This document shows, piece by piece, positions 5,708-61,907 of a DNA stretch of 62,530 nucleotides. How positions within the stretch are numbered: position 1 is the stretch's first letter; the number at the start of each line of letters is the position of its first letter. Made by a program: the position numbers and the translations under genes. The notes under the pieces are model-generated. The model had not been told where the DNA came from. It did no database searches and was given only the letters and a program-made list of their open reading frames with translations. Source of the DNA: a virus (lineage: Duplodnaviria > Caudoviricetes); the IMG/VR virus record IMGVR_UViG_3300044691_000381, positions 1 through 62,530 of that record; one strand, 5' to 3'.

Positions 5708-5710
5708 ATT

Positions 5711-5857
5711 TGTGCGGCGGCGTGGATGGACACGCTGGGTAGGAAAGTCCCTGCGAGCGGTCTGCCGTCTTCCCGACGCAATTGCAGTTGATCGCGCAAA
5801 CGCGCTTTACGCATATCGGGCGACTCGCATAGCTGGTATCAAGCCCAGCCCGCACAA
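5711..5857 (+). ncRNA. tRNA-like structured RNA with expanded anticodon region
   Basis: 7-bp acceptor TGTGCGG/CCGCACA, D-like arm GCGTG-GATGGA-CACGC, T-like arm GCTGG-TATCAAGC-CCAGC, about 95-nt internal insert; no encoded CCA. Confidence 0.6.
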
Positions 5858-37128: not shown

Positions 37129-37707
37129 TTAGAAATCTTCCTGTAAAGCAAGGACTCCGGTAGTTGGTAACTGTGGACGAGGGAAATTCGTTCGCGCGAA
37201 CTCGCCAAAGTGTTCAATGGCGGCTTCATCGTAGGCTTTGGCGGCCTCAATCTCTTGCTCGATTGGATAGAATCCGAGATTGATCAACTTTCCGTTGACG
37301 CGAATCATCGAGCGGCAATATTGGGTATCTCCGAACCGGGTCACGCCTTTGTACTTGCGCGTAGCGTGGGTGGACTGATTCATCGAGTTTTGGTGAGCTG
37401 TAGCTATACGAATTTGCGATCTTCGGTTATCGAGCGTCTTCGCATATCGATGATCAACGGTTTTGCCTAGTGGTGATTGGAGAAGCTGACGCGCCATGAA
37501 CACGGTCCGTTGCTTCCCATCCACAACCTCAGTGCGACCCGCATAGAACTTGCCTGGCGTTAGCTGCAAGGCCTGCCAAGTCCACTGAGATAGCAATTCG
37601 GCATCATCACGGTCGACCAACGCGTATAAGCCTTGAGTGAGTTGGATGTATGCGATTGAAGGACCGGCTGGGATGATTGCAGGGCGAATTGTTCGTGGTC
37701 TTCCCAT
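37129..37707 (-). CDS. HNH-AP2 homing endonuclease (second copy)
   Basis: LTQG..ALVD, VDH...TLDNRR, YKGV, AAKAYDEAA.EHFGEFA.TNF. Confidence 0.9.
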   Translation of the reverse strand: MGRPRTIRPAIIPAGPSIAYIQLTQGLYALVDRDDAELLSQWTWQALQLTPGKFYAGRTEVVDGKQRTVFMARQLLQSPLGKTVDHRYAKTLDNRRSQIRIATAHQNSMNQSTHATRKYKGVTRFGDTQYCRSMIRVNGKLINLGFYPIEQEIEAAKAYDEAAIEHFGEFARTNFPRPQLPTTGVLALQEDF

Positions 37708-38799: not shown

Positions 38800-39837
38800 T
38801 CATGGACGGCTGCTCCCCTCTGGAGAGAGTAAGGATATCTGTGCGCGAAGTTGAAGTACGTAGCGAATTTCATAACATCCCTGACACTTGCAATTGTCAG
38901 AGTATTCAAATAAGTCCCTGAAATCATCCTCGGTGACTTGACTCCAATCTTTACCCTTCATCTCTCCATCGTCTTCGAACAGATTGCGGGTATAAAAAGG
39001 TTTTTCCTCCCAATGTTTCAACTCCTCCATTGCTAGGCGTAGGGCTTCCTGGGAGGCTGCTAGTTGGCGTTCGCGGCAATGAAGGACGGCTCTAACCTTG
39101 TCCAATTCCGAGTAAAGGTCGTCAGTCCTGAATGCCGAATCTTTGGCTTCGTAAATCTCTTGTTTCGCGATGTCGTCAAGCGGAGGCAATCTCCCTCCAT
39201 CCGCGCATTTCTCGCAGACTATCTGTTTCCCCGGCGTGGTGCCCGTGGTTGGGATAGTGAATGACTTCTTGCCGTAGAGTTTGACTGAGCACGTCGCGCA
39301 CTCGGAATTGGCATAGAAGGGCGAGGCCAATCCCCCTCCATCCGCTACTGGCTGCGGTATAAGGGAGGGATCACACTTGATGAATCTCTCTACGGCACCC
39401 ATGATTATCCCGTCTTCCTGAACGGCCCCGAGCAGATATTGCAGCATTCTCTTCTGAAACTCCCCCTCGTCTTCAATGAAGTCCCGCAGAACCTCGCAGA
39501 AGGCGTTGTGGTAGATGCGGATTACGAAGTCCGGAGGCTGTGACTGAAGCCACGTATCGAACTTGTCTATGTCGGCTGGCGTGCCCCCTCCATCCTCTTG
39601 GAGTGACTCTGCGGGGGCGGATTTGAGTTTTGGCAACTTGGCGCGTGCATCAGCCCATGCTTCGGCTTCAGTTTCGCCGCCGCCAATAGCACGGTCGTTG
39701 CGATATTCCCCGGTCCACAGCGTCCAGCCCTCTTCCATCGCTCTCCATCCGCCCCAATGCTTAGCGCTTGCTTTGGGGTAAGCCTGCCGCACTGCCTGCT
39801 CGTCCCCCATCCCATCTTCTACGCCCTTAGTTTTCAT
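38800..39837 (-). CDS. Mosaic hypothetical protein
   Basis: 345-aa coupled ORF with CxxC pairs. Confidence 0.65.
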   Translation of the reverse strand: MKTKGVEDGMGDEQAVRQAYPKASAKHWGGWRAMEEGWTLWTGEYRNDRAIGGGETEAEAWADARAKLPKLKSAPAESLQEDGGGTPADIDKFDTWLQSQPPDFVIRIYHNAFCEVLRDFIEDEGEFQKRMLQYLLGAVQEDGIIMGAVERFIKCDPSLIPQPVADGGGLASPFYANSECATCSVKLYGKKSFTIPTTGTTPGKQIVCEKCADGGRLPPLDDIAKQEIYEAKDSAFRTDDLYSELDKVRAVLHCRERQLAASQEALRLAMEELKHWEEKPFYTRNLFEDDGEMKGKDWSQVTEDDFRDLFEYSDNCKCQGCYEIRYVLQLRAQISLLSPEGSSRP

Positions 39838-40169
39838 GCTTTTGGCTCCTGTGCTTCCTCATGTGGCTGCGAGAGTTTTGCTATTGCTTCATCAAAGGCC
39901 CGCAGAACTTCAGCGTGAGTGCGGGCGTCATTGAAGTGCTGGAAGCTCCACGGATACGAAACTTTCTCCAATGCCGTCTGGCATCCGCTGACAATTTCGC
40001 GATCTTGCGTGGTCGCTAGAACGGCACCAGCAGAGCACCAGCAGACAGCGTTGGGGCTTGTTGCCCTGCACGGCCTGCGAGACTGGGTTCGGGCTGTCTG
40101 TCGCTGCGTCCACCGCTCTCTTGGCGTAATCTTCTTTCGCGCGGCCCTCAATGTTTCCAAGATCGTCAT
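39834..40169 (-). CDS. DUF6197-like protein
   Basis: L.AAR..I...WTQ, CWCSAGA, FND..RTHAEVL..FD.AI. Confidence 0.7.
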   Translation of the reverse strand: MTILETLRAARKKITPRERWTQRQTARTQSRRPCRATSPNAVCWCSAGAVLATTQDREIVSGCQTALEKVSYPWSFQHFNDARTHAEVLRAFDEAIAKLSQPHEEAQEPKA

Positions 40170-40800: not shown

Positions 40801-41157
40801 TCATGGCTTCACCTTGGGAGGGACGCTCTTTGGATTGTGCTCAAGCACTAAATGGCAGTGAATGCATTTCGTCAGAAGGTTGCTGGCGAGATCCCCGTTA
40901 TTCCTCTTGGCCCGAATGTGCGCCAAGTGACCGGAGTTCCATTCGCCGCGCTCGAAGACAACCGCCGACAGGCAGATAACGCCATCACCGAGATCATGCT
41001 GGCAGCGGTAGCCGTCGCGCTCGAATACTTCACGGCGAACCGCCTCCATGTCTTTGCCGACAACGCGCACGATGCCAAGCTTTCCCGGTTTACCAGAGCG
41101 CTTCTTTCTATGCTTCGACACCTTGCGGATGGGCTTGGAGATGCGGAAGAGGTTCAT
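40801..41157 (-). CDS. HNH nuclease (NinG/McrA-like)
   Basis: VFERDGYRC, HLAHI, NLLTKCIHCH. Confidence 0.8.
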   Translation of the reverse strand: MNLFRISKPIRKVSKHRKKRSGKPGKLGIVRVVGKDMEAVRREVFERDGYRCQHDLGDGVICLSAVVFERGEWNSGHLAHIRAKRNNGDLASNLLTKCIHCHLVLEHNPKSVPPKVKP

Positions 41158-43327: not shown

Positions 43328-44341
43328 TTATTTCGTTCGAAGTACGCGGGTGGTTGTGGTTTCGGTAAACAGTTCGGCGATGTCTGGATGTTCGGCGCGG
43401 AGTAGCTTGACGGCGATGCGGTTGGTCTGCTGACTGTTCCAGGTGACAGCCGGTTTTCCATCGGGCCCGAGGATGGCGAACTTCTGGGAGTCGCCCTCGA
43501 CGCCATTTTCTGAGGCTGCGTTGGCCAAAGATGTCTTGACGGCGATCTCCAGACCCTCCCGCGTGGCCTCGAGGCGCTTCTGTGCTTCTTTCACGCCTTT
43601 GAGGATGCCCAACTGCTTCCATACCTCTTCATTGCCGGCCCATGCGAAGCCCTCGAAGCGAGACAGCACTTTGCTGGCATCTTCTGAGGACTTGATACCC
43701 GGCGGGACGCTCGCAATGACATGGTTGAACCAGAAGTCGACGGCTGCCTTGCGGATGTAGGCAATGATCTGGTCGTCGCGGTCGACCTCGTACACGCGGA
43801 GGTCGTCGGCGCCGATGAGCGCTCCCACCTTTGTGTGAGTCCGTCCGGTGACCATGAGGCCGAACTGGAACTGCGCGCCATAGTAAGCGGGGAATTCGTC
43901 GCTTCCTTCGATCCCCCAATCACCAGCGGCGCGCGGATGGACGGTCTTTATGTCGCCGTTGGCAACAGTACCCCCTCCATCCATCACGTATTCGAAGTCG
44001 ATCTCAGCACGAAGGAATGGGAACTCTTTGTCGACGTGGATCTGGTTGCGGTCAATCACCCAGACGTCGTGCTCCTCCTGCAACATCTCAATGACCATCG
44101 GTTCCAGCTTCTTACCGCGGCGGAGAACCTTGTCGCGCTCCTCGGAGGACTCTTCCTGCCAGTCCGTCGTCTTCTCTTGCCAAAGTTCATAGGCTGTCTT
44201 CCAGGGGGAGATTCCGAGGATGGCCGCTATGTCGGAGCCACCCAGAAATCCTTTGCGGTTCATCTTCTCAGGCGCGGGGTGTCCATTCTTTACTTTTCGC
44301 AGAAGGTCTATGGTTTGCTGGTCTACGTCTAACGCTGGCAT
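43328..44341 (-). CDS. YqaJ-like (lambda Exo family) exonuclease
   Basis: GGSDIAAILGISPWKTAYELW.EK, G..LE, A.ID, DIKT, Y.AQ.Q. Confidence 0.93.
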   Translation of the reverse strand: MPALDVDQQTIDLLRKVKNGHPAPEKMNRKGFLGGSDIAAILGISPWKTAYELWQEKTTDWQEESSEERDKVLRRGKKLEPMVIEMLQEEHDVWVIDRNQIHVDKEFPFLRAEIDFEYVMDGGGTVANGDIKTVHPRAAGDWGIEGSDEFPAYYGAQFQFGLMVTGRTHTKVGALIGADDLRVYEVDRDDQIIAYIRKAAVDFWFNHVIASVPPGIKSSEDASKVLSRFEGFAWAGNEEVWKQLGILKGVKEAQKRLEATREGLEIAVKTSLANAASENGVEGDSQKFAILGPDGKPAVTWNSQQTNRIAVKLLRAEHPDIAELFTETTTTRVLRTK

Positions 44342-44352
44342 GGTGATCCTTT

Positions 44353-44607
44353 CTAAAGCGTCATGAAGCTTGCATCCCCCGGCGCGGCGCCGAGCTTGCG
44401 AAGAATGGTTGGCTCAACCGTGGGAGAGAAGGGCTGGGCGTTCTGCTGGGTGATGTAGCGCAACAGGATCCTTGCCTCTGGGTTCGCTCTCAGCTTGCGA
44501 AACGCTTCCCGCTCCAAGCGCGATACCTCGGCCTGAGAGATTCCCAATCGGAGCGCTACTACTTCCTGACTACGTACGGCGACTTCGCGGACGCGGCGGG
44601 ATTCCAT
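44353..44607 (-). CDS. Stand-alone sigma-70 region 4 HTH protein
   Basis: SQEVVA.RLGISQ.EVSRLEREAFRKLR. Confidence 0.75.
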   Translation of the reverse strand: MESRRVREVAVRSQEVVALRLGISQAEVSRLEREAFRKLRANPEARILLRYITQQNAQPFSPTVEPTILRKLGAAPGDASFMTL

Positions 44608-44942
44608 CAGCGAGCCTCCGCCGCAGTGGCGTTGGCTATGGCCAGGTCGAGGGCATAGAGAACTTGTTCGTGGGTGGCGTGGTCGTTGTAGTACGGGAAA
44701 TTTCTCGCGTAGGCAGGAAAAAAGGGCTCAAACTGGTCCATAAGGCTGTAGACGCCGGGGACATTGAGCACCTTCTGCATCGCGCCTTCCATGCACCAGC
44801 ACGTAGCCTCCGGATCATTGCCATACAGGGCTAAGACCGCGCGCTGCGACCTCTTGGCGTATACCTTCTTGCACCAATTCTTCTTCGGCGTCAGCAGATT
44901 TCGCGTGGCCCGCAGTGTTTTCAAAACGTTGACCTTTCTCAT
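44607..44942 (-). CDS. DUF6197-like protein (paralogue of 39834-40169)
   Basis: CWCMEGA, YND.ATHEQVL.ALD.AI. Confidence 0.7.
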   Translation of the reverse strand: MRKVNVLKTLRATRNLLTPKKNWCKKVYAKRSQRAVLALYGNDPEATCWCMEGAMQKVLNVPGVYSLMDQFEPFFPAYARNFPYYNDHATHEQVLYALDLAIANATAAEAR

Positions 44943-45181
44943 TGCGGTCCCTTTCGTATGCATGCGTCTAACTGCTCCTCACGCGTCTCAAGCTCATTGA
45001 AGGTCTTGCGTAACTCCCACTCGTATCTGGAGTAGTGCTTGGCTTCTTTGCCTTCGGCGTCCATCTGCTCCCACCTCTTGAGCCACTTGGCGCGCTGCTC
45101 TGGCGGGATGCGGGTGAAGATGGGCCGGTTGGTTTGGGAGTCGTAGGCGATCGCCGGAAGTAATCTGAGGTCTACGCTCAT
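44939..45181 (-). CDS. Hypothetical protein
   Basis: GGAGG SD, coupled. Confidence 0.55.
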   Translation of the reverse strand: MSVDLRLLPAIAYDSQTNRPIFTRIPPEQRAKWLKRWEQMDAEGKEAKHYSRYEWELRKTFNELETREEQLDACIRKGPQ

Positions 45182-47093: not shown

Positions 47094-47342
47094 TCATCGT
47101 GCACCTCCAGCGGCAGCCATCTTGCCGTCGGCTACCGGCTTGGGTTCCACGGCTCCGGTGCCATGGCAGAAAGAGCAGGGGATGTGAAAGGTTGCGTACC
47201 CGCAGGAGTAGTTCTTGCGTGCGAAGCGGGTGGGAATCTCAGCAACGACCTTGCCGCTGCCCTTGCAGTTGCCGCAGACCTTGCGGGTGGACTGGATGTT
47301 GGCAATCTCGCGCTCACTGAGGACTGGAGTTTTAGTCGCCAT
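47094..47342 (-). CDS. DnaJ-type Zn-finger mini-protein
   Basis: CGNCKGSG and CSFCHGTG; GGAGG SD. Confidence 0.7.
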   Translation of the reverse strand: MATKTPVLSEREIANIQSTRKVCGNCKGSGKVVAEIPTRFARKNYSCGYATFHIPCSFCHGTGAVEPKPVADGKMAAAGGAR

Positions 47343-47542
47343 TAGCGGCCTCCCTCTGCGGTGAGAAGGTTGGGAAGCTGCACCATCTCTTCGGGAGTGA
47401 TCGGCGAGAGCCAGTCGTGAACCGCGTGCGCCGCATCGTTGGGGCAGCGCCGGCAGGGGGCGGGATCGCCCAATTTGAAGGGTCCAGGTACGAAGGGATG
47501 TGTTCCGAGGTGAACCCGCGTAATGCGAGGGTTATTTGGCAT
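47342..47542 (-). CDS. First gene of leftward early operon (His/Cys mini-protein)
   Basis: AGGAGG SD; HPF...CRRC....H.VH. Confidence 0.65.
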   Translation of the reverse strand: MPNNPRITRVHLGTHPFVPGPFKLGDPAPCRRCPNDAAHAVHDWLSPITPEEMVQLPNLLTAEGGR

Positions 47543-47572
47543 CGTTATCGACCTCCTACAGCCGATGACGAC

Positions 47573-47602
47573 ACTCTAGTCTCAACTAGTGTGCAAAGTC
47601 AA
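47573..47602 (-). promoter_or_regulatory. Leftward early promoter (PL-like)
   Basis: TTGACT-N18-TAGAGT with ACTAGT inside the spacer. Confidence 0.7.
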
Positions 47603-47614
47603 CTTAAATTAGTT

Positions 47615-47632
47615 TCATACACTAGTGTATGA
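47615..47632. promoter_or_regulatory. Perfect 18-bp palindrome, putative operator
   Basis: TCATACACTAGTGTATGA. Confidence 0.7.
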
Positions 47633-47664
47633 CTAGAATCAACCCGAAGGGTGCTATTGTGAAT

Positions 47665-47874
47665 CTCGGGTTCCCCGCATAAGTGGGTTGAGCCTCGCCG
47701 GGCCGCTCCCGTTGTGCTCCCGAGGGCGCACTCCTACCGCGGGGGCGGTTCCGGCACACTAAAGATTGTGATGGGGACGGGATTTCATGGAGTCCAAGGC
47801 CACCGTCTCAAAAGAGCCAATAAAGCTGCCCATTGCAAACAGAAAGGCCCTCCGAAGAGGGTCTTTCTGTTTGC
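47665..47874 (+). ncRNA. Candidate structured sRNA
   Basis: Extended -10 TGcTATTGT (47652-47660), nested GC-rich stems, ends at terminator; no convincing ORF. Confidence 0.4.
47835..47874. terminator. Bidirectional intrinsic terminator
   Basis: 18-bp arms GCAAACAGAAAGGCCCTC / GAGGGTCTTTCTGTTTGC, loop CGAA (TTCG on -). Confidence 0.85.
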
Positions 47875-47898
47875 CCGGCCACCCAGCCGGGGAGCGCA

Positions 47899-48267
47899 CT
47901 ACTTCTTAGTATTCCATTCAGGCAGGCCCAGTAACTCCTCTTTGCCGGCCACGGTCAGGCTGCCAACTTTTAGCGCGATCCTGATGCCCACTTCAACATT
48001 CGACGCGGCGCGCTTCTTTCCTATGGCGACGCCGCCATCCATGAGGATCTTCTGCAGGTCTACCTTCGGCATGGGATTGCCATGTTCTTCCAGAACGGTC
48101 CGTATGGCAACCAGCGGCCTAACATTGTAGAAGCGGGTTGCCGGGGAGTCCGCCAGCCCTTCGGACAGCGCCTCGAATCTGTTGAGGGCTGCCAGCGCGG
48201 CCTTGCGGGGCTTGAGTTGTGCTTTCAGTTGCTCGATCTCTAGTTCCAGGGTTTCGCGTGAGTTCAT
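47899..48267 (-). CDS. Coiled-coil plus winged-helix protein (paralogue 2), putative regulator
   Basis: DSPATRFY..AIR.VLEEHG.PM.K.DL.KILMDGG...LLGLPEW; AGGAGG SD. Confidence 0.75.
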   Translation of the reverse strand: MNSRETLELEIEQLKAQLKPRKAALAALNRFEALSEGLADSPATRFYNVRPLVAIRTVLEEHGNPMPKVDLQKILMDGGVAIGKKRAASNVEVGIRIALKVGSLTVAGKEELLGLPEWNTKK

Positions 48268-48302
48268 TGTCGTTGTCGCCCTCCTACAGGGGACGTACCG
48301 AT

Positions 48303-48710
48303 CTACTTCTTGTTCGCCCACTCAGGAAGGCCGATAAGCTCGTCGTCAGCTATTTTTGCTTTCTTATCTTTGCCCGACCGCGTGATGTTGTTGTTCCTGG
48401 CATTGATCTTGATTGACAGGTCGATGTCGCTCTCAGGGGTCTCGTTTCCGTCTGCCGCGCCGCCGTCAAGCAATATCTTTCGCAGTTCGGCCTTCTTCAT
48501 CGGCTTGCCGTGCTCTTCAAGGATTTCCCGGATCGAGGCTTTGTGTTTCTTCTTGTAGAAGCGGGTCGAGGGGGAGTCGGGCAGTTCTTCGACCTCCCCC
48601 TTTTTGAGGACTGCACGAGCGGCCTTCTTACGCTTTAGCAGAGATGCGATCTGCTCCATTTGAGCTTCCAACTCCTCGATCTCCCGGTCCAACATTTCGC
48701 TTGAATCCAT
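48303..48710 (-). CDS. Coiled-coil plus winged-helix protein (paralogue 1), putative repressor
   Basis: DSPSTRFY..SIREILEEHGKPMKKAELRKILLDGG...LIGLPEW; resembles HARE-HTH/RpoE N-domain. Confidence 0.75.
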   Translation of the reverse strand: MDSSEMLDREIEELEAQMEQIASLLKRKKAARAVLKKGEVEELPDSPSTRFYKKKHKASIREILEEHGKPMKKAELRKILLDGGAADGNETPESDIDLSIKINARNNNITRSGKDKKAKIADDELIGLPEWANKK

Positions 48711-48714
48711 AGTT

Positions 48715-49221
48715 TTACAAGATCGCCCGAATGGCGTGTCCTTCCATCGGCTCCAATTTTTCAGATATGCGCTCGATGAGTTTCAATTCTTCCCCGTACG
48801 TCCAGAGAAGATCGCAGGTGTAATGTCTACCGAGTCCGAGTCTACCAATAACCTTCTCGATTACGGAAAGAAGAATTTGCCACCGCAGTTTTGCGTGGTC
48901 CTCACGCATGATCTCGAACATGGTCGCCATCTCAGAGTCCTCCGATTGAACGATTCTGGCATGGTTGGCGAAACATACGAACTGCCGTGAGTTCCAAAAT
49001 ATATTCAAGAGGTCGTCCTTCGATAGATGCACGTCCTGCCTAGAGGCTGGGTCTTTGCCGGAACGTATGCCGTGGAGTGTTACCCGTCCAGATTCACTGA
49101 GCGGGCGTGTCTCGCGGAGAAATGTTTCAACGGTGATGCCCCTTCGGTGGAAGCGGGATATGGAAGAGGAGGCTAAGGCTCCGGCCAGGAGAGCGGCTGC
49201 TCCGGAATAGATCGAATTCAT
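48715..49221 (-). CDS. Membrane-anchored helical protein (partner of 7-TM)
   Basis: ATGA overlap with 7-TM stop; weak N-terminal hydrophobic anchor, helical body. Confidence 0.75.
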   Translation of the reverse strand: MNSIYSGAAALLAGALASSSISRFHRRGITVETFLRETRPLSESGRVTLHGIRSGKDPASRQDVHLSKDDLLNIFWNSRQFVCFANHARIVQSEDSEMATMFEIMREDHAKLRWQILLSVIEKVIGRLGLGRHYTCDLLWTYGEELKLIERISEKLEPMEGHAIRAIL

Positions 49222-49976
49222 GAGGTTAGGGACCTTTCGTGTCGTGACGGTTCGTGGAGGTGGCTCCGGTACTTGCGGAGAGCCGTCTTCAGGAGTTCCG
49301 TCTGGGCGGGGTCCCACTGATGACTAGCGACTTGGTAATTGGAGGAGATGAACCAAAGTACGAGGGAGATGAGGTAAGTGATTTCGGTGACGTGGGTGAC
49401 TCGGACCGCCAGATGCGTCCTGATGGCGGTATCAACTGCCCCAGAGCGGGCAATCGCATAGAGCGAAAACCCGAGGTAAACCAGTAGCAGCCGGGTATCT
49501 TTTGCGGAGTCGACCATCCAAGCATAGAGCGGTGCCGCTGCCAGCATCAGGCAAAACCAGTACAGTGCGACGTGATCGACCGCAAGAAACCACTTCCATC
49601 CCGGATCGATGTTGCTGGTGAGGGGGAAGCGCAGCGTCAGAATCGCGATTGCAAGCATGCAGCCAGCGAAGACCTGGAGGAGAACAGGATTCCTGTCCGG
49701 GATGCCGGTCTTGCGGATCGCCTGGAAGAGGGCCACCACGAGATAGATATGGGCGGCATAATCAACAAACCACCCTACCCAGCAGGCCGCGTGGTAGACC
49801 TGCCATGGAGCCAAGCGAGCCACAGCGAAGAGCCAGATGGAATTGCCGACCACCGCCCCTAGATATGCCGCCAACGCGATGTTGCGGCGCCTATAGGCCC
49901 ACAGGCCGACAGTAAGTTGACCGAGTACGACAGCAAGCCAGATGCAAAGCTGGAGGTGGGTGATTTTAGTATGCAA
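49218..49976 (-). CDS. 7-transmembrane protein, putative peptide receptor
   Basis: Seven hydrophobic segments by eye, short cytoplasmic tail, no enzymatic domain; TTG start. Confidence 0.8.
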   Translation of the reverse strand: MHTKITHLQLCIWLAVVLGQLTVGLWAYRRRNIALAAYLGAVVGNSIWLFAVARLAPWQVYHAACWVGWFVDYAAHIYLVVALFQAIRKTGIPDRNPVLLQVFAGCMLAIAILTLRFPLTSNIDPGWKWFLAVDHVALYWFCLMLAAAPLYAWMVDSAKDTRLLLVYLGFSLYAIARSGAVDTAIRTHLAVRVTHVTEITYLISLVLWFISSNYQVASHQWDPAQTELLKTALRKYRSHLHEPSRHERSLTS

Positions 49977-50009
49977 GGCGCCCCCGGATGGAAGCGCCCT
50001 GCACGGGGT

Positions 50010-50201
50010 CTACTTCTTGTGAGGCTTGACCGGCAAAGGTGCCGGCGCCTTGTGGGAACCGCAGGCGGGGGGACACGGAGTTGGAACTCCTACCGGGCCT
50101 TGTGCGAGAAGAGACGCATCGTTGCGCGTGGCAACATGCATAGACGCAAACAGGGCCAGAACAAGAACAAAGGCGAAGAATAAAGCCAGACGAGTTTTCA
50201 T
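50010..50201 (-). CDS. Small secreted peptide precursor
   Basis: AAGGAG SD; Sec-type signal MKTR-LALFFAFVLVLALFA; core LLA-QGPVGVPTPCPPAC. Confidence 0.8.
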   Translation of the reverse strand: MKTRLALFFAFVLVLALFASMHVATRNDASLLAQGPVGVPTPCPPACGSHKAPAPLPVKPHKK

Positions 50202-50299
50202 TGAAAGCTCCTTTGGCGCGTGAATGCGCTACACAGAGCTTACGAAGGGAAAGGTGCTGGCAATAGAGAGCAGGCGAGGTAACTTTGCTGCGAACCAGA

Positions 50300-50328
50300 A
50301 CAGTAACCAAAGTCATAGGAAAAGACAA
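50300..50328 (-). promoter_or_regulatory. Putative sigma70 promoter of the peptide/7-TM operon
   Basis: TTGTCT-N17-TACTGT. Confidence 0.55.
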
Positions 50329-50479
50329 GAGGAATTTCCGATGACACGGAAGTCCTTTGTCTACTACACGACGATGAGGTAAATGGGGACCGGGTGAGAC
50401 ATAGCTGGAACTGGCTGTGGAAAAAACCAATGGGGGAACGCATCGCATGAAGGCCAAATCACTGTCAGAGCAATTTCTG

Positions 50480-50500
50480 CCAGTGGCAGTTTGAGTGGCA
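50480..50500. repeat. Integrase arm-type repeat, copy 1
   Basis: CCAGTGGCAGTTTGAGTGGCA, identical at 50744-50764. Confidence 0.8.
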
Positions 50501-50624
50501 CCTCCAGCCTGTACTCGGTGCACCTTATGCGCTTCTATGCAATTCAGACGTTTTGCGGAAGTTCTTGTCTTTATTGGTCTATGCGGCTTTATGCGTCTCG
50601 GTGCAAAGCTAGCGTACATGGCTT

Positions 50625-50687
50625 GCAGCGGACTTAAAATCCGCAGGGAGCAATCCCATGAGGGTTCAAGTCCCTCTCCGGGCACCA
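50625..50687 (+). mobile_element. attP core: 3' portion of tRNA-Leu(TAA)
   Basis: Anticodon arm GCGGA-CTTAAAA-TCCGC, long variable arm, GAGGGTTCAAGTCCCTC, TCCGGGCACCA; 5' acceptor and D-arm missing; beside integrase 3' end. Confidence 0.92.
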
Positions 50688-50712
50688 ACAAACTAAAGGT
50701 GCTTAGCTCCAT

Positions 50713-51795
50713 TTAGCCAGCCCTTCCGATCTTCTTGGAATTCCCAGTGGCAGTTTGAGTGGCAGTTCCAATTGAAACCACGTTTCGGAGTGCTGGCGCT
50801 GTCAGTATCTTCTCGACCTCGATCTGTTTATGGTCTGGGCAGAGGTGCGCATACTGTGCCGTGATGGAGATGGTCTTATGTCCGGCGAGTTCTTGGATTG
50901 TCTTCAGGGGAACCCCGGCAATCGCCAGCCATGAGCAGAACGTGTGCCGGTTGCAGTGCCAGACGTAATCCTCGATCTCAGCCGTCTCCATTGCCGGATG
51001 GAACCATGAGCGGGTATCGAAGTTGGCGCCCTGCCGGGGGAAGACTCGCTCTTTCCGCTTGGGTGTTACGCGGGCCTTGCGTGTGGCCAGAATCTCTTTC
51101 ACCTGGGAGTTCATCATCACGGTACGATCGTCGCCATTCTTTGTCGCAGTTAGGTTGATTTCATCGCGCTCAAAGTCTACCTGCCACCACTCCACGGTGT
51201 ACTGCTCAGTGAGGCGCATTCCGGAGAGCACCGAAACCGCGAACTCTTCCTTGTGGGGATCTTTGATGGCAGCGTACAGGTCGGCATATTCGGAGCGGGA
51301 GAGGAAGCGCTTGCGGCCCTTTGCTTGCGGACGTTGGTGGATTAGACGAGCCGTGTTCATCTTCACCTTCCCCAACCGTATGCCTTCTTTGTAGGCCAAG
51401 GAGACAAAGGCCTTGTAATGGTTGAAGGTGCTGTCACTGACGTCGCGCGCCTTGATCCAATCGCTGATCTCATCGGGGCCGATCTCATCGGCAATGCGCG
51501 TACCGAGCCCGTCCTTCAGCAGTGCGGCCTTAGTCACATAGTCCCGAACCGACTTGTTGTGTTCGCGCGCATAGGCAAGCGCCAGGTCTGCCAAGTCTCC
51601 AACCGTCACCTTCTTCCTCCGCAGCTCGGGAAGCTTATCTCCCGTGAGGAGTTCCGTACGGCGCTTCCGGTAGAGTTTGCCTGCGTCGGTCTTGGTGCCA
51701 GCGCGCTCCCGCCGCCGCTTGCCATGATCGAAATACTGACACCACCAGATACCGCTGCCTACCGGGCATTCGTAAACGCCCCGCTCTTTAGCCAT
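50713..51795 (-). CDS. int: Tyrosine integrase
   Basis: SGMRLTE, TKNG, HCNRHTFCSWL, LAGHKTISITAQYAH. Confidence 0.96.
   Translation of the reverse strand: MAKERGVYECPVGSGIWWCQYFDHGKRRRERAGTKTDAGKLYRKRRTELLTGDKLPELRRKKVTVGDLADLALAYAREHNKSVRDYVTKAALLKDGLGTRIADEIGPDEISDWIKARDVSDSTFNHYKAFVSLAYKEGIRLGKVKMNTARLIHQRPQAKGRKRFLSRSEYADLYAAIKDPHKEEFAVSVLSGMRLTEQYTVEWWQVDFERDEINLTATKNGDDRTVMMNSQVKEILATRKARVTPKRKERVFPRQGANFDTRSWFHPAMETAEIEDYVWHCNRHTFCSWLAIAGVPLKTIQELAGHKTISITAQYAHLCPDHKQIEVEKILTAPALRNVVSIGTATQTATGNSKKIGRAG
50744..50764. repeat. Integrase arm-type repeat, copy 2 (inside int 3' end)
   Basis: 21-bp direct repeat of 50480-50500. Confidence 0.8.
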
Positions 51796-51804
51796 GGGTT
51801 TCTC

Positions 51805-52020
51805 CTAAGCGGACACCATATCAGAATGCATAATCTCGGCGGCGACGCGCTTGACGTCTTCGCTGGGGATGAGGACGCGCCGACCCTTGCGGCGGGTTCG
51901 CAGCTTGCCATCGCTGATGAGGTAGTCGATTGCCCGGACCGACATAGCCAGGGAGCTCGCGGCTTCGTAGCGGGAATAGAAGAACTTTTCGAAGGCTACA
52001 ACCTTTGCACGCTGCTGCAT
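51805..52020 (-). CDS. xis: Excisionase (HTH_17-like)
   Basis: YSRYEAA.SL.MS.RAIDYLI.DGKL.TRRKGRRVLIP; directly upstream of int. Confidence 0.85.
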   Translation of the reverse strand: MQQRAKVVAFEKFFYSRYEAASSLAMSVRAIDYLISDGKLRTRRKGRRVLIPSEDVKRVAAEIMHSDMVSA

Positions 52021-52055
52021 GGACTTGCTCCGAGGAAGAATTTGGTTGAGTGACG

Positions 52056-52085
52056 ACTATGGTACTTTTGGACACTAGTTGTCAA
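52056..52085 (-). promoter_or_regulatory. xis/int promoter
   Basis: TTGACA-N18-CATAGT, ACTAGT next to -35. Confidence 0.7.
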
Positions 52086-52101
52086 TCTATTTTTAAACTA
52101 G

Positions 52102-52131
52102 TTGACTAAATAGTGTTAGCTGGGTTAGTGT
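52102..52131 (+). promoter_or_regulatory. Rightward early promoter (PR-like)
   Basis: TTGACT-N18-TAGTGT, ACTAGT overlapping -35. Confidence 0.7.
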
Positions 52132-52156
52132 TTGGCTTCCGACACAGGAGCGTCCC

Positions 52157-52306
52157 TTGTTCTTCAATCTCGTCCTCTGCCTTGCAGTGTGTTTGCTCGT
52201 CACCTCACCCCTAACCTTCCACAAAGCCCGCATTCTCAAAGACAAACTGGTCGACTGGATCGAGCGCAAGCAGTTCGAGAGGCTTGTAGACCGGGTGGGC
52301 CGATGA
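52157..52306 (+). CDS. Small N-terminal TM protein (49 aa), first rightward gene
   Basis: Read by hand: AGGAG SD, TTG start, ATGA overlap with next gene. Confidence 0.55.
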   Translation: MFFNLVLCLAVCLLVTSPLTFHKARILKDKLVDWIERKQFERLVDRVGR

Positions 52307-52698
52307 GCGCCACGCCAGAGCTGCCCGAAATAACCTGCCCGTACTGTCGCAAGCCTGCCGAGCTTGGCGGTGGGAAATGGTTTTGCGCACCCTGCAAAGC
52401 TTGGGTGAGAGCCTACCCCAACAGCCCCACTCAGAAACCCATGGGGCGGCTGGCGAAGGAAAGACTTCACAGCATGCGCGTCCGAGCCTATGCAGCCTTC
52501 GACAGCGTGTGGCAGATGGTTTCTGGGGTGCAAGGTTGGCCGGAGGCGCGCGCACGGAAAGCGGCGTACTGGTGGCTGGCGCAGGAGCTGGGACTCCATC
52601 AGAGCGAGTGCCAAATCTCCTTCTTCAACGAGTTCAATACCCAACGGGTGATTGACATCTGCATGGCTGTGGGTGGGAAGAAGGACGTGGCGGCGTGA
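52303..52698 (+). CDS. DUF3268-like zinc-finger protein
   Basis: CPYC..C.PC.AWV..P.GRLA..L..R..A..AFD..W, AY.WLA.ELG. Confidence 0.8.
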   Translation: MSATPELPEITCPYCRKPAELGGGKWFCAPCKAWVRAYPNSPTQKPMGRLAKERLHSMRVRAYAAFDSVWQMVSGVQGWPEARARKAAYWWLAQELGLHQSECQISFFNEFNTQRVIDICMAVGGKKDVAA

Positions 52699-53369
52699 AC
52701 AGGCGTCCTTGGACTCCGGGAGAATTGGAGATCGTTCGCCGCGAGTATGCGAACACGCGGACGGATGCAATCGCGAAGCGGCTAGGGCGATCACTGACGA
52801 ATGTCTATCAAGCGGCTTATCGGCTGGGGATATTCAAGAGCGGAGAATATCTCGCTAGTCCGGACGCGTGCAGGCTAAGACGAGATTTCACGCCAGCCTC
52901 GATAGCGAAGCGCTTCAAGCCGGGGCAGGTACCGGCGAATAAGGGTCTGCGTCGACCGGGTTGGGCACCGGGCCGCATGAAAGAGACGCAATTTGGCAAG
53001 GGTCAGATGCCGCACAATTGGCATCCCGTCGGGCATGAGCGCCTGACGAAAGAAGGCTATCTACAGCGCAAGATGGCCGACACCGGGAACACCGTGGAGG
53101 ACTATGTCGAGGTTCACCGGCTGCTATGGGAAGAGCGTCATGGCCCGATTCCTTCCGGCCTCGTGCTCGTCTTCAAAGATCGCAACAAAACGAACATTGT
53201 CCTCGAAAACCTCGAACTGATCACCCGCCGCGAACTTATGGCTCGCAACTCCATTCACCGTCTCCCGAAGGAGTTGGCAGACTTGATCCAACTCAACGGC
53301 GCACTGAAACGAAAGCTGAGGACTCTTAGTGAAAAACAAAATGTCGGATCTTCGCAACCATCTCTTTGA
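52695..53369 (+). CDS. HNH endonuclease
   Basis: FKPGQVPANKG, VHRLLWEE.HGPIP, FKD.NK.N..LENL. Confidence 0.88.
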   Translation: MNRRPWTPGELEIVRREYANTRTDAIAKRLGRSLTNVYQAAYRLGIFKSGEYLASPDACRLRRDFTPASIAKRFKPGQVPANKGLRRPGWAPGRMKETQFGKGQMPHNWHPVGHERLTKEGYLQRKMADTGNTVEDYVEVHRLLWEERHGPIPSGLVLVFKDRNKTNIVLENLELITRRELMARNSIHRLPKELADLIQLNGALKRKLRTLSEKQNVGSSQPSL

Positions 53370-53582: not shown

Positions 53583-53765
53583 CTACTCCTCCTCCACCCA
53601 AGTAAGGTCTCTAGTCGGCACTCGGTAGCGATTCAGGAGAGTTCCTTTGAGTTCAAGGTTCACCTCGGAGCCGTCCGCACTCACAGCCCACACCGTCCAG
53701 ACCGATTTGGAGGTTCCGGGAATTACCTTATCGCCCACCTTCGGGATGCGCTGCTTCTTTGCCAT
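53583..53765 (-). CDS. Small beta-barrel-like hypothetical protein
   Basis: MAKKQRIPKVGDKVIPG..; AGGA SD. Confidence 0.7.
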   Translation of the reverse strand: MAKKQRIPKVGDKVIPGTSKSVWTVWAVSADGSEVNLELKGTLLNRYRVPTRDLTWVEEE

Positions 53766-53768
53766 AAG

Positions 53769-54068
53769 TTACTTCCTAAGCTTTCTATACTCCTCCGGCG
53801 TAAGCGCAAGCCACACGCCCCCCGGCCTTCCCATTCGAATCTCCCGCTCGAGCTGGCTACGTGCCTCGACGGTCCGGTCTTCTCCCCATCGTGCCTGCAT
53901 CTCGAGGATCTTGTCGGGTGTGGCGAAGATGAGTTTGAGGGGCAGGGAAGTACGGCAGTCCTCCTCAAGGAAGCTGATGCGGTAGCCATCACGAAGCATG
54001 AAGTTCATAAGGACGCGGTGTTGGTTGGTTCGTTTGATAGCGCCCTGAGAACAGAAGTGTGCACCCAT
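53769..54068 (-). CDS. Hypothetical protein
   Basis: HRVLMNF..FLEED.RT.LP.KL.F...GGVWL.LT.EEY.KL. Confidence 0.75.
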   Translation of the reverse strand: MGAHFCSQGAIKRTNQHRVLMNFMLRDGYRISFLEEDCRTSLPLKLIFATPDKILEMQARWGEDRTVEARSQLEREIRMGRPGGVWLALTPEEYRKLRK

Positions 54069-54109: not shown

Positions 54110-55168
54110 ATGGGAAGAGAAACGAATATCAGTTGGACAGACAGCACTTGGAATGCGATTCGCGGTTGCTCGCGCGTCAGCGAAGGATGCAGGCATTGCT
54201 ATGCAGAATCCATCGCGCACCGTTTCAGCGGGCCGGGCTTGGCATACGAAGGGCTCGTGCAACTCGACGCATCCGGCAAGTCTACGGGCAAGTGGAACGG
54301 GCAAATAAAGTTCCTAGAAGCACACCTGCTCGACCCGCTGAAGTGGAAGGAACCGCGTCGCATCTTCGTCAACTCGATGAGTGATCTGTTCCATGAGAAC
54401 GTCACCGACGAGATGCGCGACAAGATTTTTGCCGTGATGGCGCTTTGTCCGCAGCACACCTTTCAGGTGCTGACGAAGCGGCCGGAGAGGATGCTGGCTT
54501 ATCTGAGCGACGACAATCCGCGGTACACCATCCGAAGAATCTTCGATGCAGCCGAGAAGATCGATGCAGAGAATGGTTATGTCTTCGACTGCGATATCTA
54601 TAAACCGCTGTCGAACGTTCACCTGGGCGTATCAGTGGAGGATCAGAAAACGGCTGACCTGCGCATCCCGCTGCTGCTGCAGACGCCGGCGGCGGTTCGG
54701 TTCATCAGCGCGGAGCCGTTGTTGGGGCCAGTGAATCTGGGGGCGCTCAAGTTGGACGGGCCGAATGCGTGGACGACCCACGAATGCAAGCTTGACGGGC
54801 TGAGCGTGCGCAGCAATGGGTCGCCTGCGTTGGGCTGGGTGATCGTAGGCGGCGAGAGTGGGGCTGGGGCGCGTCCGATGCATCCGGACTGGGCGCGGAG
54901 TCTGCGCGATCAGTGCAAGGCCGCTGGCGTGCCGTATTTTTTCAAGCAGTGGGGGGCGTGGACGCCCGGCGAGAATGTCGATCGGGTGACGGGAACCGTC
55001 GACACGGCTGTCTGGTTCAACAATGAGTGGCTGATTGGCATGGAAACACTTTCCAATGACGAAGGCCACGTTGACGACCAGCCTGACCTATACCGCGTCG
55101 GCACAAAGGCCGCTGGCTGTCTTCTGGACAGTGTCGAGCATCATGAGTTCCCGGCGGTGCCAGCGTGA
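54110..55168 (+). CDS. Phage Gp37/Gp68 (DUF5131) protein
   Basis: WTD.TWN..GC.RVSEGC.HCYA, IFVNSMSDLFH, LTKRPE, SAEPLLG, GGESG, FFKQWG. Confidence 0.93.
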   Translation: MGRETNISWTDSTWNAIRGCSRVSEGCRHCYAESIAHRFSGPGLAYEGLVQLDASGKSTGKWNGQIKFLEAHLLDPLKWKEPRRIFVNSMSDLFHENVTDEMRDKIFAVMALCPQHTFQVLTKRPERMLAYLSDDNPRYTIRRIFDAAEKIDAENGYVFDCDIYKPLSNVHLGVSVEDQKTADLRIPLLLQTPAAVRFISAEPLLGPVNLGALKLDGPNAWTTHECKLDGLSVRSNGSPALGWVIVGGESGAGARPMHPDWARSLRDQCKAAGVPYFFKQWGAWTPGENVDRVTGTVDTAVWFNNEWLIGMETLSNDEGHVDDQPDLYRVGTKAAGCLLDSVEHHEFPAVPA

Positions 55169-55428
55169 TTGTTTCGGCTCGCCAGAAGCCAGTTGAGCAG
55201 TTGCCTGAATGGGCGCTGTGCTGCGACACGATGCGACAAGAGCACATGACCGAAGAGAAGCTTGGCAGCATCCTGAAAGTCGAGTCGGAATCAGCGTTCT
55301 CGGGTGAGGCCGAATGTCACCACTGTCATCGAATAACCCCGAATATCAGGGTTTTACTATCCACCAGCCGCCCAAAGCTTGCGATCCCAGTGGACAACTA
55401 CGACTTTGATGAGGGGGAATCAGAATGA
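55165..55428 (+). CDS. Hypothetical protein
   Basis: Coupled ORF with CC and CHHC. Confidence 0.55.
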   Translation: MIVSARQKPVEQLPEWALCCDTMRQEHMTEEKLGSILKVESESAFSGEAECHHCHRITPNIRVLLSTSRPKLAIPVDNYDFDEGESE

Positions 55429-55634
55429 GCCGCCCCCGCAAAGTCCTCTCTTCCCGACCGCAGATGAGTTTAGCCGAGATTGCCGAGGAATTGGGCACGA
55501 CCAAGAGCGCCGTAAATATGTGCCTGGTCCGCGCCCTGAAAAAGCTCCGCTCTCAGGGACTCGTAATCAAGATGCAAGAACTTGCGGATGACCTTGACCG
55601 CAACCGAAAGGGAAGTGCGCACTATGAGACCTAG
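55425..55634 (+). CDS. Stand-alone sigma-70 region 4 HTH protein
   Basis: MSLAEIAEELGTTKSAVNMCLVRALKKLR. Confidence 0.8.
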   Translation: MSRPRKVLSSRPQMSLAEIAEELGTTKSAVNMCLVRALKKLRSQGLVIKMQELADDLDRNRKGSAHYET

Positions 55635-56046
55635 AAAGAAGATCCTCTGTGTGGATTGCAATGAGCAGACTCTCTCGGTTCGCAAGTTCTTCCTTGAGAC
55701 GCGCGGCTTCCGTGTGGTTCCAATGGCGACCTCAGACGAAGCGCTCGCGATTCTCGAGCGGGCACTCCCGTACTCCATCGACCTGATGATCTGCGAGCTT
55801 TTGATGCCGCAGATGGACGGCAATGAGTTGGTGAGGCGCGCCAAGCAACTGCGTCCCGAACTGGCAGCAATGGTCATCTCCAGTGGGGTCGGTGCGCTCG
55901 AGTTCGCCAAGCATGCCGACGTGTTCCTTGCAAAGGGCTGTAGCTCCCCGACTGAAATATACGGCTTCGCGCGTCGCTTAGTGGCACGCAAACCGGGTCC
56001 AAAACCAGCTTCTCATTCAGGGTCCCAGGCTGGGAGGGTGGCGTGA
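55624..56046 (+). CDS. Single-domain response regulator (pseudo-receiver, D-to-E)
   Basis: ILCVDCNE, DLMICELLMPQMDG.EL, MVISS, FLAKG. Confidence 0.88.
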   Translation: MRPRKKILCVDCNEQTLSVRKFFLETRGFRVVPMATSDEALAILERALPYSIDLMICELLMPQMDGNELVRRAKQLRPELAAMVISSGVGALEFAKHADVFLAKGCSSPTEIYGFARRLVARKPGPKPASHSGSQAGRVA

Positions 56047-61473: not shown

Positions 61474-61907
61474 GAGCCAAGCGCCCACTCTTTGGTTGGT
61501 CCGTCGAAACGCCATCTAAGTCCGCAATATCCAAGCCCACTACCGGTCCAACGTGGAACGACGCCGACAACATACCCGATCCCAAAGCCCGCAGCATGGA
61601 CGAACAGGTAGAGATGCGCTGCAAGACCAAGCGTCTGGCCGACTGCGAGCTGCCTGAAGGATTCAGGTTAGTCACCAAGACGCCCCGGCAGTACTGGATT
61701 GACTCTCAGTTGCGATGGGGCTTCGAACTTGCATTTGGGGAACATCGGCACATAGCGCGGTATATCCAGCAGGTAGCCGATGACGTGCAGATGCAGTGGG
61801 CAATCGCTGACTTCACCGCAGAGCTGATGTTCAACGGCGTGTCGCTCAACCCAAACAGGAAGCGGCACGAGACCGCGCGCAAGGAAGCGCGTCCATGTCT
61901 GGTTTAG
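61470..61907 (+). CDS. Hypothetical protein
   Basis: GTGA overlap; overlaps sigma start. Confidence 0.55.
   Translation: MRAKRPLFGWSVETPSKSAISKPTTGPTWNDADNIPDPKARSMDEQVEMRCKTKRLADCELPEGFRLVTKTPRQYWIDSQLRWGFELAFGEHRHIARYIQQVADDVQMQWAIADFTAELMFNGVSLNPNRKRHETARKEARPCLV

Follow-up and report, generated by a model that had tools for sequence, protein, structure and literature searches.

Two adjacent genes of a temperate soil virus of the Caudoviricetes, here called paralogues A and B, are the last genes of a portable cassette next to the phage attachment site attP, and they may control the lysogeny of this phage. The virus is the IMG/VR record IMGVR_UViG_3300044691_000381, which was analysed over its whole length of 62,530 bp and is called the window in the following. 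Both proteins combine an N-terminal coiled coil with a winged helix, and the favoured reading, held tentatively at a probability of about 0.45, is that A acts as a dimer to repress the early and xis (excisionase) promoters, with B as a modulator that is itself blind to DNA. The reading builds on the replacement of basic residues in B, on the recurrence of the cassette in an otherwise unrelated provirus, on clusters of the same short DNA element in the regulatory regions of both phages, and on the lack of a detectable CI/LexA-type repressor in the window. The gene pair and the structure that follows it are:

47899..48267, minus strand: paralogue A, 122 amino acids (aa) from an ATG, with a 140-aa GTG extension possible; coiled coil and winged helix, basic motif GKKR..N intact
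48303..48710, minus strand: paralogue B, 135 aa; fold as in A, longer coiled coil and wing; acidic GNET..SD.D in place of the basic motif
47820..47905, minus strand: predicted terminator of two hairpins just past the stop codon of A; stem of 18 bp (47835-47874), inverted repeat of 94%, terminator-like hit

A paralogue pair with one acidic winged helix

In a preliminary description of this locus, the two open reading frames (ORFs) had been given with their sizes, with the shared motifs DSP.TRFY, LEEHG.PM.K..L.KIL.DGG and L.GLPEW..KK, and with a stretch in which they diverge (GNETPESDIDLSIKIN in one, GKKRAASNVEVGIRIA in the other), and all of this is found in the sequence as stated. A and B share 61 of 137 positions (45% identity, E 1e-35 in a pairwise BLASTP), which is far beyond chance and confirms that they are paralogues. 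They had also been called tandem copies, and as far as this implies a recent duplication it does not hold. In a maximum-likelihood tree, which was a quick search only and has many open forks, A and B fall into one broad clade (SH-aLRT, the Shimodaira-Hasegawa-like approximate likelihood ratio test, 87) but into different subclades, with B and its orthologues on a long stem, and as the two are not sisters, a recent tandem duplication was rejected. Single-gene relatives seem to exist as well, because a low-depth contig (depth 2.1) from another soil run joins 48248 to 48717 and skips B, which suggests relatives with one gene only. The coiled coil of B exceeds that of A by exactly seven residues, which is one heptad, and the wing of B carries an insertion.

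The family is rare: among 1.84 billion cluster representatives, a HMMER profile search found 103 relatives at E <= 1e-3, 29 of them at E <= 1e-10 and three at E <= 1e-30, and a word-indexed search found two only. Nearly all members have 110-140 aa and the same layout of N-terminal coiled coil, flexible linker and winged helix. The family alignment (A2) holds 71 sequences, namely 67 of the 103 relatives together with A, B, P0001 and P0002, and leaves out fragments, fusions and the 25 weakest relatives. Its most conserved stretch is the turn before helix 3 and the start of that helix, GG..(I)GKKR..(H)N.R.S. At positions 89, 90, 91 and 95 (B numbering), K/R, K/R, R/K and N are present in 57, 53, 60 and 53 of the 71 members, respectively; A has K, K, R and N there, and B has N, E, T and D. 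The net charge of turn and helix 3 is +4 in A and +3 in the family median, but -3 in B, which is the lowest value of the 71 aligned members and is equalled only by P0001, these two being the only net negative ones. P0106, the third member of the clade of B, stands outside the alignment and has the acidic motif of B too. As read from these sequences, the acidic change of the basic motif is confined to the clade of B.

It is proposed that B cannot hold DNA, because its surface is acidic where the family has KKR..N, and the earlier idea that one of the paralogues is unable to bind DNA thus gains support from the charge of B (-3 against a family median of +3). B looks like a maintained DNA-blind derivative. 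A complex prediction for A and B with alignments (score 0.21, mark 0.32, controls not folded) speaks neither for nor against an interaction of the two. Matches of B to NTP_transf_2/Polbeta and to MntA-type proteins (E 0.0015-0.004, below the cut-offs) were taken as noise on the winged-helix region. A metagenomic family member of 178 aa, P0008, has a coiled coil, a canonical winged helix and a second winged helix without KKR, and is in this respect a natural fusion of the A/B arrangement.

The attP-adjacent cassette and its counterpart in another provirus

The cassette, which is absent from the preliminary description, lies between attP and the early genes and comprises, together with the recombination functions next to it:

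50612..50684, plus strand: tRNA-like attP core, Rfam RF00005 (29.9 bits against a gathering threshold of 29, E 2e-4)
50480-50506 and 50744-50770: direct repeats CCAGTGGCAGTTTGAGTGGCA.., 27 nucleotides, 93%, flanking the attP core
50713..51795, minus strand: tyrosine integrase (PF00589, E 1.4e-23; phrog_1, E 4.6e-55)
51805..52020, minus strand: excisionase-like HTH_17 protein, 71 aa (PF12728, E 1.6e-5; 25.5 bits, just below the 27-bit cut-off)
50010..50201, minus strand: small protein of 63 aa, N-terminal signal-like hydrophobic segment, proline-rich tail with CPPAC
49218..49976, minus strand: multi-pass membrane protein of 252 aa, the first large cassette gene, five hydropathy peaks over the threshold plus weaker ones
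48715..49224, minus strand: protein X, about 169 aa (ORF open to 49317), weakly hydrophobic N-terminus followed by a soluble domain

Beyond attP, the order is 63-aa signal-type protein, 252-aa membrane protein, X, B, A, the two hairpins and the early promoter region, with all genes on the minus strand. The tRNA-like element is the predicted attP core. It has the anticodon loop UAA and a long variable arm and thus is of the Leu type, its 5' acceptor strand is unpaired, and ARAGORN found no whole tRNA at this element. Contigs from another soil run match only about 50629-50674 and diverge on both sides. The direct repeats around the core are probably arm sites of the integrase. At the other end of the cassette, the hairpins after A have a predicted folding energy of -44.5 kcal/mol (z -4.1; none of 200 shuffles was equally stable) and form a predicted terminator that separates the cassette from the early operon.

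X has no match in Pfam, PHROGs, PADLOC or NCBIfam. Its relatives number 18, and three of them are on contigs of 46,243, 5,026 and 1,347 bp, sizes that match those of contigs with winged-helix members; taking these to be the same contigs, the coincidence suggests that X is carried along with the winged-helix gene. The Atlas look-alikes of the membrane protein are unnamed clusters of Acidobacteriota, those of A and of the membrane protein are taken together mostly Acidobacteriota, and one member of the winged-helix family comes from Edaphobacter albus. The host of the phage is probably an acidobacterium.

Three genomic contexts of the family, all from the viral collection, could be read: the window and the proviruses G001 and G002. 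G001 (45.9 kb, CheckV completeness 98%) carries the integrase and the cassette at opposite ends. Its cassette consists of a signal-type protein of 51 aa with CPPC, a membrane protein, X and one winged-helix gene (P0026), and is followed by an HTH_3 protein. At the same position in both cassettes, the membrane proteins share 29% identity (E 1e-17), and the X proteins match with a BLASTP E of 5e-7, which is seen only in the pairwise comparison; the likeness of the 51-aa and 63-aa signal-type proteins is by eye only. A and the single homologue in G001 are 37% identical (E 2e-19), and there is no B in G001. The two phages are otherwise unrelated: only five window proteins match in G001 (tblastn, E <= 1e-3), namely A, B, the membrane protein, a holin-like protein of 84 aa and one protein with a 20-residue match that was taken for chance. 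The excisionases are unalike (E 6), and the match between the integrases is limited to the area of a short stretch in the catalytic domain (E 0.007). By these comparisons, the winged-helix protein is the only predicted DNA-binding protein that the window phage and G001 detectably share. In the provirus G002 (Edaphobacter), the family member is the last gene at the boundary, and the sequence upstream is truncated.

Candidate operators at two phage promoters

On the minus strand of 47300-52400, only two sigma-70-like promoter hits were obtained, and both are at sites that carry ACTAGT:

47571..47646, minus strand: early promoter/operator region, TTGACT-18-TAGAGT (47602-47573), before the early operon
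47615-47632: 18-bp perfect palindrome TCATACACTAGTGTATGA, intergenic, the longest perfect palindrome in the window
47597-47583: box TTTGCACACTAGTTG in the early promoter region
47342..47542, minus strand: gene of 66 aa without a family that opens the leftward early operon, ahead of zinc-ribbon proteins, YqaJ exonuclease, RecT, RusA and DnaB
52056..52116: xis-int/divergent promoter region, TTGACA-18-CATAGT on the minus strand (52085-52056), before xis-int
52067-52081 and 52090-52104: two boxes ..ACTAGTTG in the xis-int promoter region

A palindrome of 18 bp is expected by arithmetic about 0.24 times in 62.5 kb and is by itself no more than suggestive. The early and xis regions have a 15-bp box, TTTG(C/G)ACACTAGTTG, in common, with 14 of 15 positions alike. 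The preliminary description had named ACTAGT sites as targets for binding assays. Their paired arrangement at the promoters is beyond chance, as two pairs within 40 bp occur among the six sites (p about 8e-5 by simulation), but their count is not, as six sites against 4.5 expected are reached in 27 of 100 shuffles. The 10-mer ACACTAGTGT (2 mismatches) is not enriched either, with 11 occurrences against 12 expected window-wide. ACTAG is absent from the regulatory region of G001, so that the shared element is the half-site ACACT/AGTGT and not ACTAGT as such, which was dropped as operator word.

This half-site emerged from a count of all 512 strand-symmetric pentamers in three regions of 101-138 bp, the early and xis regions of the window and the xis/early region of G001. 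ACACT/AGTGT is the most enriched pentamer across the three together, with 4, 3 and 4 copies, respectively, followed among the shared ones by CACTA with 3, 3 and 2. In the early region of the window, the four half-sites lie within 70 bp, and the xis-int region holds the three others. Genome-wide the pentamer occurs at 0.83-0.88 per kb, and the clusters in the regulatory regions are the densest of this pentamer in each genome; an equally dense cluster appeared in 5 of 500 shuffles of the window and in none of 500 of G001. No other DNA-binding protein is detectably conserved between the two phages, which makes the winged-helix protein the most economical candidate for the binder of these half-sites. 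That one of the paralogues may bind promoter DNA, as had been supposed, is thus supported at the sequence level by the same half-site clusters in an otherwise unrelated phage with the same cassette.

Two further observations concern the surroundings of these sites. A leader of 20 nucleotides that includes the ribosome-binding site (CTGTAGGAGG.CGA.AACGA, coding strand) stands before gene A (48270-48289) and, with 90% identity, before the first early gene (47542-47561). The longest perfect palindrome of G001, TCACGTATACGTGA (44169-44182), lies between the winged-helix gene and the XRE gene that follows it, a position that mirrors the window, where the longest palindrome likewise comes after gene A.

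No CI/LexA-type repressor in the window

The window had been described as a complete temperate genome, and this is reasonable in view of its exact terminal repeat of 127 bp (IMG/VR class: direct terminal repeats), the tyrosine integrase, the HTH_17 excisionase-like gene and the tRNA-like attP, although the completeness figure shown for it from CheckV is only 71. The S24 peptidase (PF00717) had no match at E <= 1 in six frames over the full record, and the same search was positive in 12 of 14 known genomes used as control. For the XRE-type helix-turn-helix (HTH) PF01381 there were two matches of 19 and 17.9 bits, both below the 23-bit cut-off and both in sigma-70 region-4-like HTHs (44353-44607 and 61895-62476). 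A and B have no HTH_3-type match at E <= 1. Among ORFs of at least about 40 aa, Pfam scans (75 + 23 + 39 ORFs) and a PHROGs scan (72 ORFs) named no CI/Cro/LexA-type protein. At the level of hidden Markov models, the claim that the window has no XRE-HTH or S24 protein is therefore borne out, and the search for a real CI/LexA-type repressor elsewhere in the record found none.

The remaining DNA-binding candidates of the window, besides the excisionase-like protein, are:

44353-44607, minus strand: HTH protein of 84 aa, barely more than a sigma region-4-like HTH (PF04545, E 7e-6)
55425-55634, plus strand: HTH protein of 69 aa, sigma-70 region-4/LuxR-like
61895-62476, plus strand: FliA/WhiG-like sigma factor (TIGR02479, E 1.2e-26)

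The 84-aa protein is encoded in the early operon, where it adjoins a DUF6197 gene, and is an alternative regulator candidate.

An SOS-independent switch had been proposed along with the missing repressor. The direct repeat GTTC-N7-GTTC, a LexA-box motif of Acidobacteria, has two matches in the window against 2.1 expected and none at the promoters. With S24 not found and this LexA-box motif at chance, SOS independence is plausible in a limited sense only, and induction by an antirepressor route is possible.

Fold and family

The winged helix of A and B is HARE-HTH-like at the superfamily level. An AlphaFold2 (AF2) model of B on the 71-sequence alignment reached a predicted local distance difference test (pLDDT) score of 89.4, compared with 56 for a poor earlier model built on four sequences. 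It has a long helix (residues 3-38), a low-confidence linker (39-55; pLDDT below 50 at 40-42, block means of 61-71 for residues 31-50) and a winged helix (56-132) in the order helix 1, strand, helix 2, helix 3, wing, with helix 1 at 56-67, helix 2 at 73-82 and helix 3 at 92-105. The best neighbour in an all-against-representatives structure search is the linker histone H1.8 (7kbf_K; Z 9.1, root-mean-square deviation 2.4, 75 aligned residues). It is followed by a chain of 84 residues from an S. aureus RNA polymerase complex (8x6g_E, Z 8.6), which is probably the delta subunit, by the histones H1 (9j8o_n, Z 8.1) and H5 (1hst_A, Z 8.0), and by many other winged helices at Z 7-8; a Z of 8-9 is close to the level that unrelated small winged helices reach.

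Sequence profiles point in the same direction. The family profile matches the globular domain 1ghc (GH1) with E 0.0085 across turn, helix 3 and wing. HARE-HTH (PF05066) matches 11 of the 71 members weakly (E <= 0.1, best 0.0012, all below threshold); B scores 15.7 bits (E 0.02) against a gathering threshold of 25.9 bits, and A has no match. Among ten distant profile hits tested, however, four (P0061, P0083, P0087 and P0094, found at E 3e-7 to 2.5e-4) are Pfam HARE-HTH proteins above the cut-off, at 37.9-228 bits, and a fifth scores 24.4 bits. One of the HARE-HTH hits has 138 aa with the domain at 61-121 and an N-terminal stretch that resembles that of the family, and in an Atlas look-alike cluster, PF05066 is on 28% of the members. 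The assignment to HARE-HTH in the preliminary description thus stands at the superfamily level, by the model, its H1/HARE neighbours and the certified distant hits; it does not stand as a Pfam assignment, since both proteins miss the cut-off. A Foldseek search against the PDB gave nothing at E <= 0.001. In A, B and the 71 members, there is no match to Pfam Linker_histone nor to H-NS, Lsr2 or MvaT, and WH_Rok (PF23159) matches one of the 71 (E 0.0072).

Further loci were sought with little yield. Three soil DNA runs gave contigs only, which served for the boundaries of the tRNA-like core and for the joint that skips B, and among public runs no RNA run was listed as containing the locus. By tblastn, A had no match in GenBank phages and P0020 none in plasmids. 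Nothing usable came from searches with the A1 alignment (genome, viral and metagenome contigs), with P0020 (genome contigs), and with P0001, P0023, P0062, P0011 and the integrase (viral contigs). Locus L007, from the A4 search of metagenome contigs, has no family member to be seen among its ORFs and was taken for a chance match.

Proposed mechanism and its alternatives

In the proposed mechanism, A and B would be the DNA-directed output of the attP-adjacent lysogeny cassette. A would form a coiled-coil dimer or oligomer and place two flexibly tethered winged helices of the H1/HARE type on ACACT/AGTGT half-sites, which as palindromes or as inverted repeats of variable spacing extend over -35, spacer and -10 of both the leftward early promoter (47573-47646) and the xis-int/divergent promoter (52056-52116). 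In the lysogen, A would thereby shut off the early lytic operon and excision and act as a functional counterpart of CI that has neither the XRE HTH nor the S24 autocleavage domain. B, which keeps coiled coil and fold, would most likely tune A, either through mixed oligomers or by competing with it for a common partner, for instance X. A signal input is suggested by the membrane and secreted parts of the cassette. A far-reaching version of this, which must be called decidedly unlikely, is that the whole cassette is a portable signal-responsive lysis-lysogeny switch: the secreted peptide with its proline/cysteine motif and the membrane protein would, via X, control the free A at the operators, B would be a DNA-blind decoy that sets the threshold, and the switch would be SOS-independent, possibly communicating from cell to cell, and mobile between unrelated phages of Acidobacteria.

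Acidobacteria are a dominant soil phylum, their temperate phages are almost unstudied, and how lysogeny is controlled in them is not known. If A is a repressor, an H1/HARE-type winged helix with a coiled coil would join the folds that serve prophage immunity, the pair would be a natural combination of a repressor with a DNA-blind paralogue, and the cassette and the ACACT/AGTGT half-site could serve to recognise prophages of this kind, and their operators, in soil metagenomes for which searches based on CI fail. Its membrane and secreted components would offer a testable SOS-independent route to prophage induction, and if the whole-cassette switch were true, it would be an immunity module built on a histone-H1/HARE-type fold that is not known as a phage repressor.

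Several points weigh against A as a repressor. The half-site was found post hoc in the window, with G001 as the only test, and its spacing varies (0, 4, 12 and about 35 bp), which the long flexible linker of the model could tolerate. G001 encodes an XRE-type protein directly after the winged-helix gene (HTH_3, E 1.2e-13) and a second small protein (5607-5816) that is XRE-like by eye only; having its own XRE-type proteins, it does not need the cassette as sole repressor, and its cassette adjoins packaging genes and not early genes. In G002 there is no AGTGT cluster, and the early promoter has a different palindrome (CGACAAATTTGTCG), so that the family member there either has a different specificity or counts against the model. 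In the window, A is co-directional with the operon that it would repress, and upstream of the cassette, neither a promoter nor a site for autoregulation was found. Neither A nor B reaches any Pfam threshold. Immunity repressors usually diversify in the turn and helix 3, the very stretch that is most conserved in this family, and to our knowledge, H1 and HARE-HTH domains are not classical operator readers.

There is a strong rival, though rather unlikely in itself: the cassette could be an accessory (moron-type) module at the prophage end whose membrane proteins serve superinfection exclusion, defence or envelope modification, with winged-helix proteins that only regulate the cassette or act as a small nucleoid-associated silencer of the Rok/H-NS kind, B as an H-NST-like antagonist of truncated function, and a different, unrecognised protein as the master lysogeny repressor. 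All three contexts place the gene at the prophage end by att, which is the usual moron site, its inner-side neighbours differ (early genes, XRE plus terminase, or late genes), and G001 has XRE-type candidates of its own. The family-wide conservation of the DNA-facing motif fits a silencer, as does the combination of an oligomerising helix, a flexible linker and a C-terminal winged helix in 110-140 aa, as in Rok-type silencers, and a weak match links B to the PADLOC candidate PDC-S09 (E 1.1e-5). Rok prefers AACTA/TACTA according to PMC6212790; in the pentamer count of this study, CACTA and AACTA come directly after the half-site among the shared ones. WH_Rok, however, matches just the one member mentioned above, and a module that regulates only itself would not be expected from the distribution of the half-sites, which are clustered at the xis/early promoters of two unrelated cassette phages, pointing to control of phage promoters and not of the cassette alone, and which form no AGTGT cluster upstream of the cassette. 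There is also no other repressor candidate of a known type in the window.

It is improbable that A instead activates the early and xis promoters, or shapes them as an architectural factor, after infection or on induction, with B as the antagonist that keeps the prophage silent. For this speaks that the 18-bp palindrome is at about -49 to -66, upstream of the better promoter TTGACT-18-TAGAGT and thus in a typical activator position, and that in the circular phage the cassette is downstream of xis-int with no terminator seen between them, so that early expression from the xis promoter is possible. The other sites overlap spacer and -10 at both promoters, though, a strong terminator insulates A from the early operon, and as G001 has no B and single-gene relatives seem to exist, B is not a general silencer. 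Still less probable is that the winged-helix proteins read no DNA sequence at all and, in the manner of the HARE-HTH domain of the RNA polymerase delta subunit or of HARE-HTH modules reported to sense modified DNA, bind RNA polymerase or methylated DNA, in which case ACACT/AGTGT would belong to a host regulator or to a phage sigma factor. The fold is like that of the RNA polymerase-bound chain in 8x6g (Z 8.6), HARE-HTH is discussed in the literature as a sensor of N6-methyladenine (6mA), and the phage encodes the FliA/WhiG-like sigma factor and two sigma region-4-like HTH proteins. These sigma-like proteins have no detectable counterpart in G001, and yet the half-site recurs there, and a dimerising coiled coil with a basic turn and helix 3 is what a binder of inverted-repeat DNA needs.

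Likeness to known systems

With HARE-HTH domains (RNA polymerase delta, ASXL, Mrr-type restriction enzymes), A and B appear to share, judging by the model, the order of helices and strands, and they share the C-terminal wing end of the G(L)P.W type, and the family profile reaches Pfam-certified HARE-HTH proteins; they differ in the coiled coil before the domain, in the family-specific basic motif GKKR..N.R.S that precedes and starts helix 3, and in their place in a prophage lysogeny cassette. The globular domain of linker histones H1/H5 is the closest in structure (Z 9.1, 8.1 and 8.0) and is also hit by the profile (1ghc), but A and B are of bacteria and phages, have a coiled coil in place of the basic tails and have no Pfam Linker_histone match.

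Among H-NS-like silencers, paralogue pairs and antagonists with defective DNA binding are a recurring theme. Like Rok of Bacillus subtilis and other silencers of this kind, A and B have, in the model, a flexible linker between a predicted oligomerisation helix at the N-terminus and a small, putatively DNA-binding domain at the C-terminus. The DNA contacts of Rok are, according to PMC6212790, made by residues at the N-terminal end of helix 3 and by basic side chains. In contrast to the silencers, the sequence link to WH_Rok is not significant, the three contexts of the A/B family that could be read are all prophage-borne, and the sites cluster at two promoters and not in AT-rich islands.

The job proposed for A, a dimeric repressor of the early promoters that is encoded in the lysogeny module, is that of lambda CI and other CI/LexA-type repressors. 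In lambda, cI-rex is followed by PL, to which the order of gene A, terminator and co-directional early promoter is comparable. Unlike these repressors, A and B have neither HTH_3 nor S24, their fold is a different one, and the cassette contains membrane proteins; lacking the S24 domain, they would not undergo RecA-driven self-cleavage. The Mu-type repressor has a winged helix and a leucine-zipper or coiled-coil dimerisation segment, is not cleaved in the SOS response, and dominant-negative variants of it are known; in A and B, the order of the domains is reversed, with the coiled coil first. In searches of the open-access full-text literature, no HARE-HTH or coiled-coil/winged-helix phage repressor and no repressor of an Acidobacteria prophage was found described.

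Other features of the window

The gene layout follows from an own codon-usage gene call together with the family scans:

about 90-31,700, plus strand: structural and lysis block with a DUF5681 small-terminase-like protein, TerL, portal, tail proteins and lysozyme
47,542 down to 31,761, minus strand: early block with zinc-ribbon proteins, YqaJ exonuclease, RecT, RusA, DnaB and several HNH endonucleases
47.9-52.1 kb: lysogeny region
52.1-62.5 kb: mixed block with DUF3268, HNH, DUF5131, the 69-aa HTH, a receiver domain, DUF1643, a replication initiator and the FliA/WhiG-like sigma factor

Two DUF6197 paralogues are encoded in the early operon on the minus strand (39834-40169 and 44607-44963, E 4e-11 and 1e-10). 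Four genes of the HNH-endonuclease type are scattered over the window, three on the minus strand (33656-34201, 37129-37707 and 40801-41157) and one on the plus strand (52695-53369); an AP2-like domain is present in one of the four and an HTH-like stretch at the N-terminus of another. The block divergent from xis contains a DUF3268 zinc-finger protein (52303-52698, plus strand, E 1.9e-16) and a DUF5131 protein (54110-55168, plus strand, E 1e-92), and at 53583-54068 two small genes of 60 and 79-99 aa without a family are on the minus strand between rightward genes. The 69-aa HTH overlaps the start of a stand-alone receiver domain of 140 aa (PF00072, E 2.4e-9; together 55425-56046, plus strand), and the pair resembles a phage-borne response regulator that is split and reversed. 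The FliA/WhiG-like sigma gene directly precedes the terminal repeat and the packaging genes, and its product probably drives late transcription.

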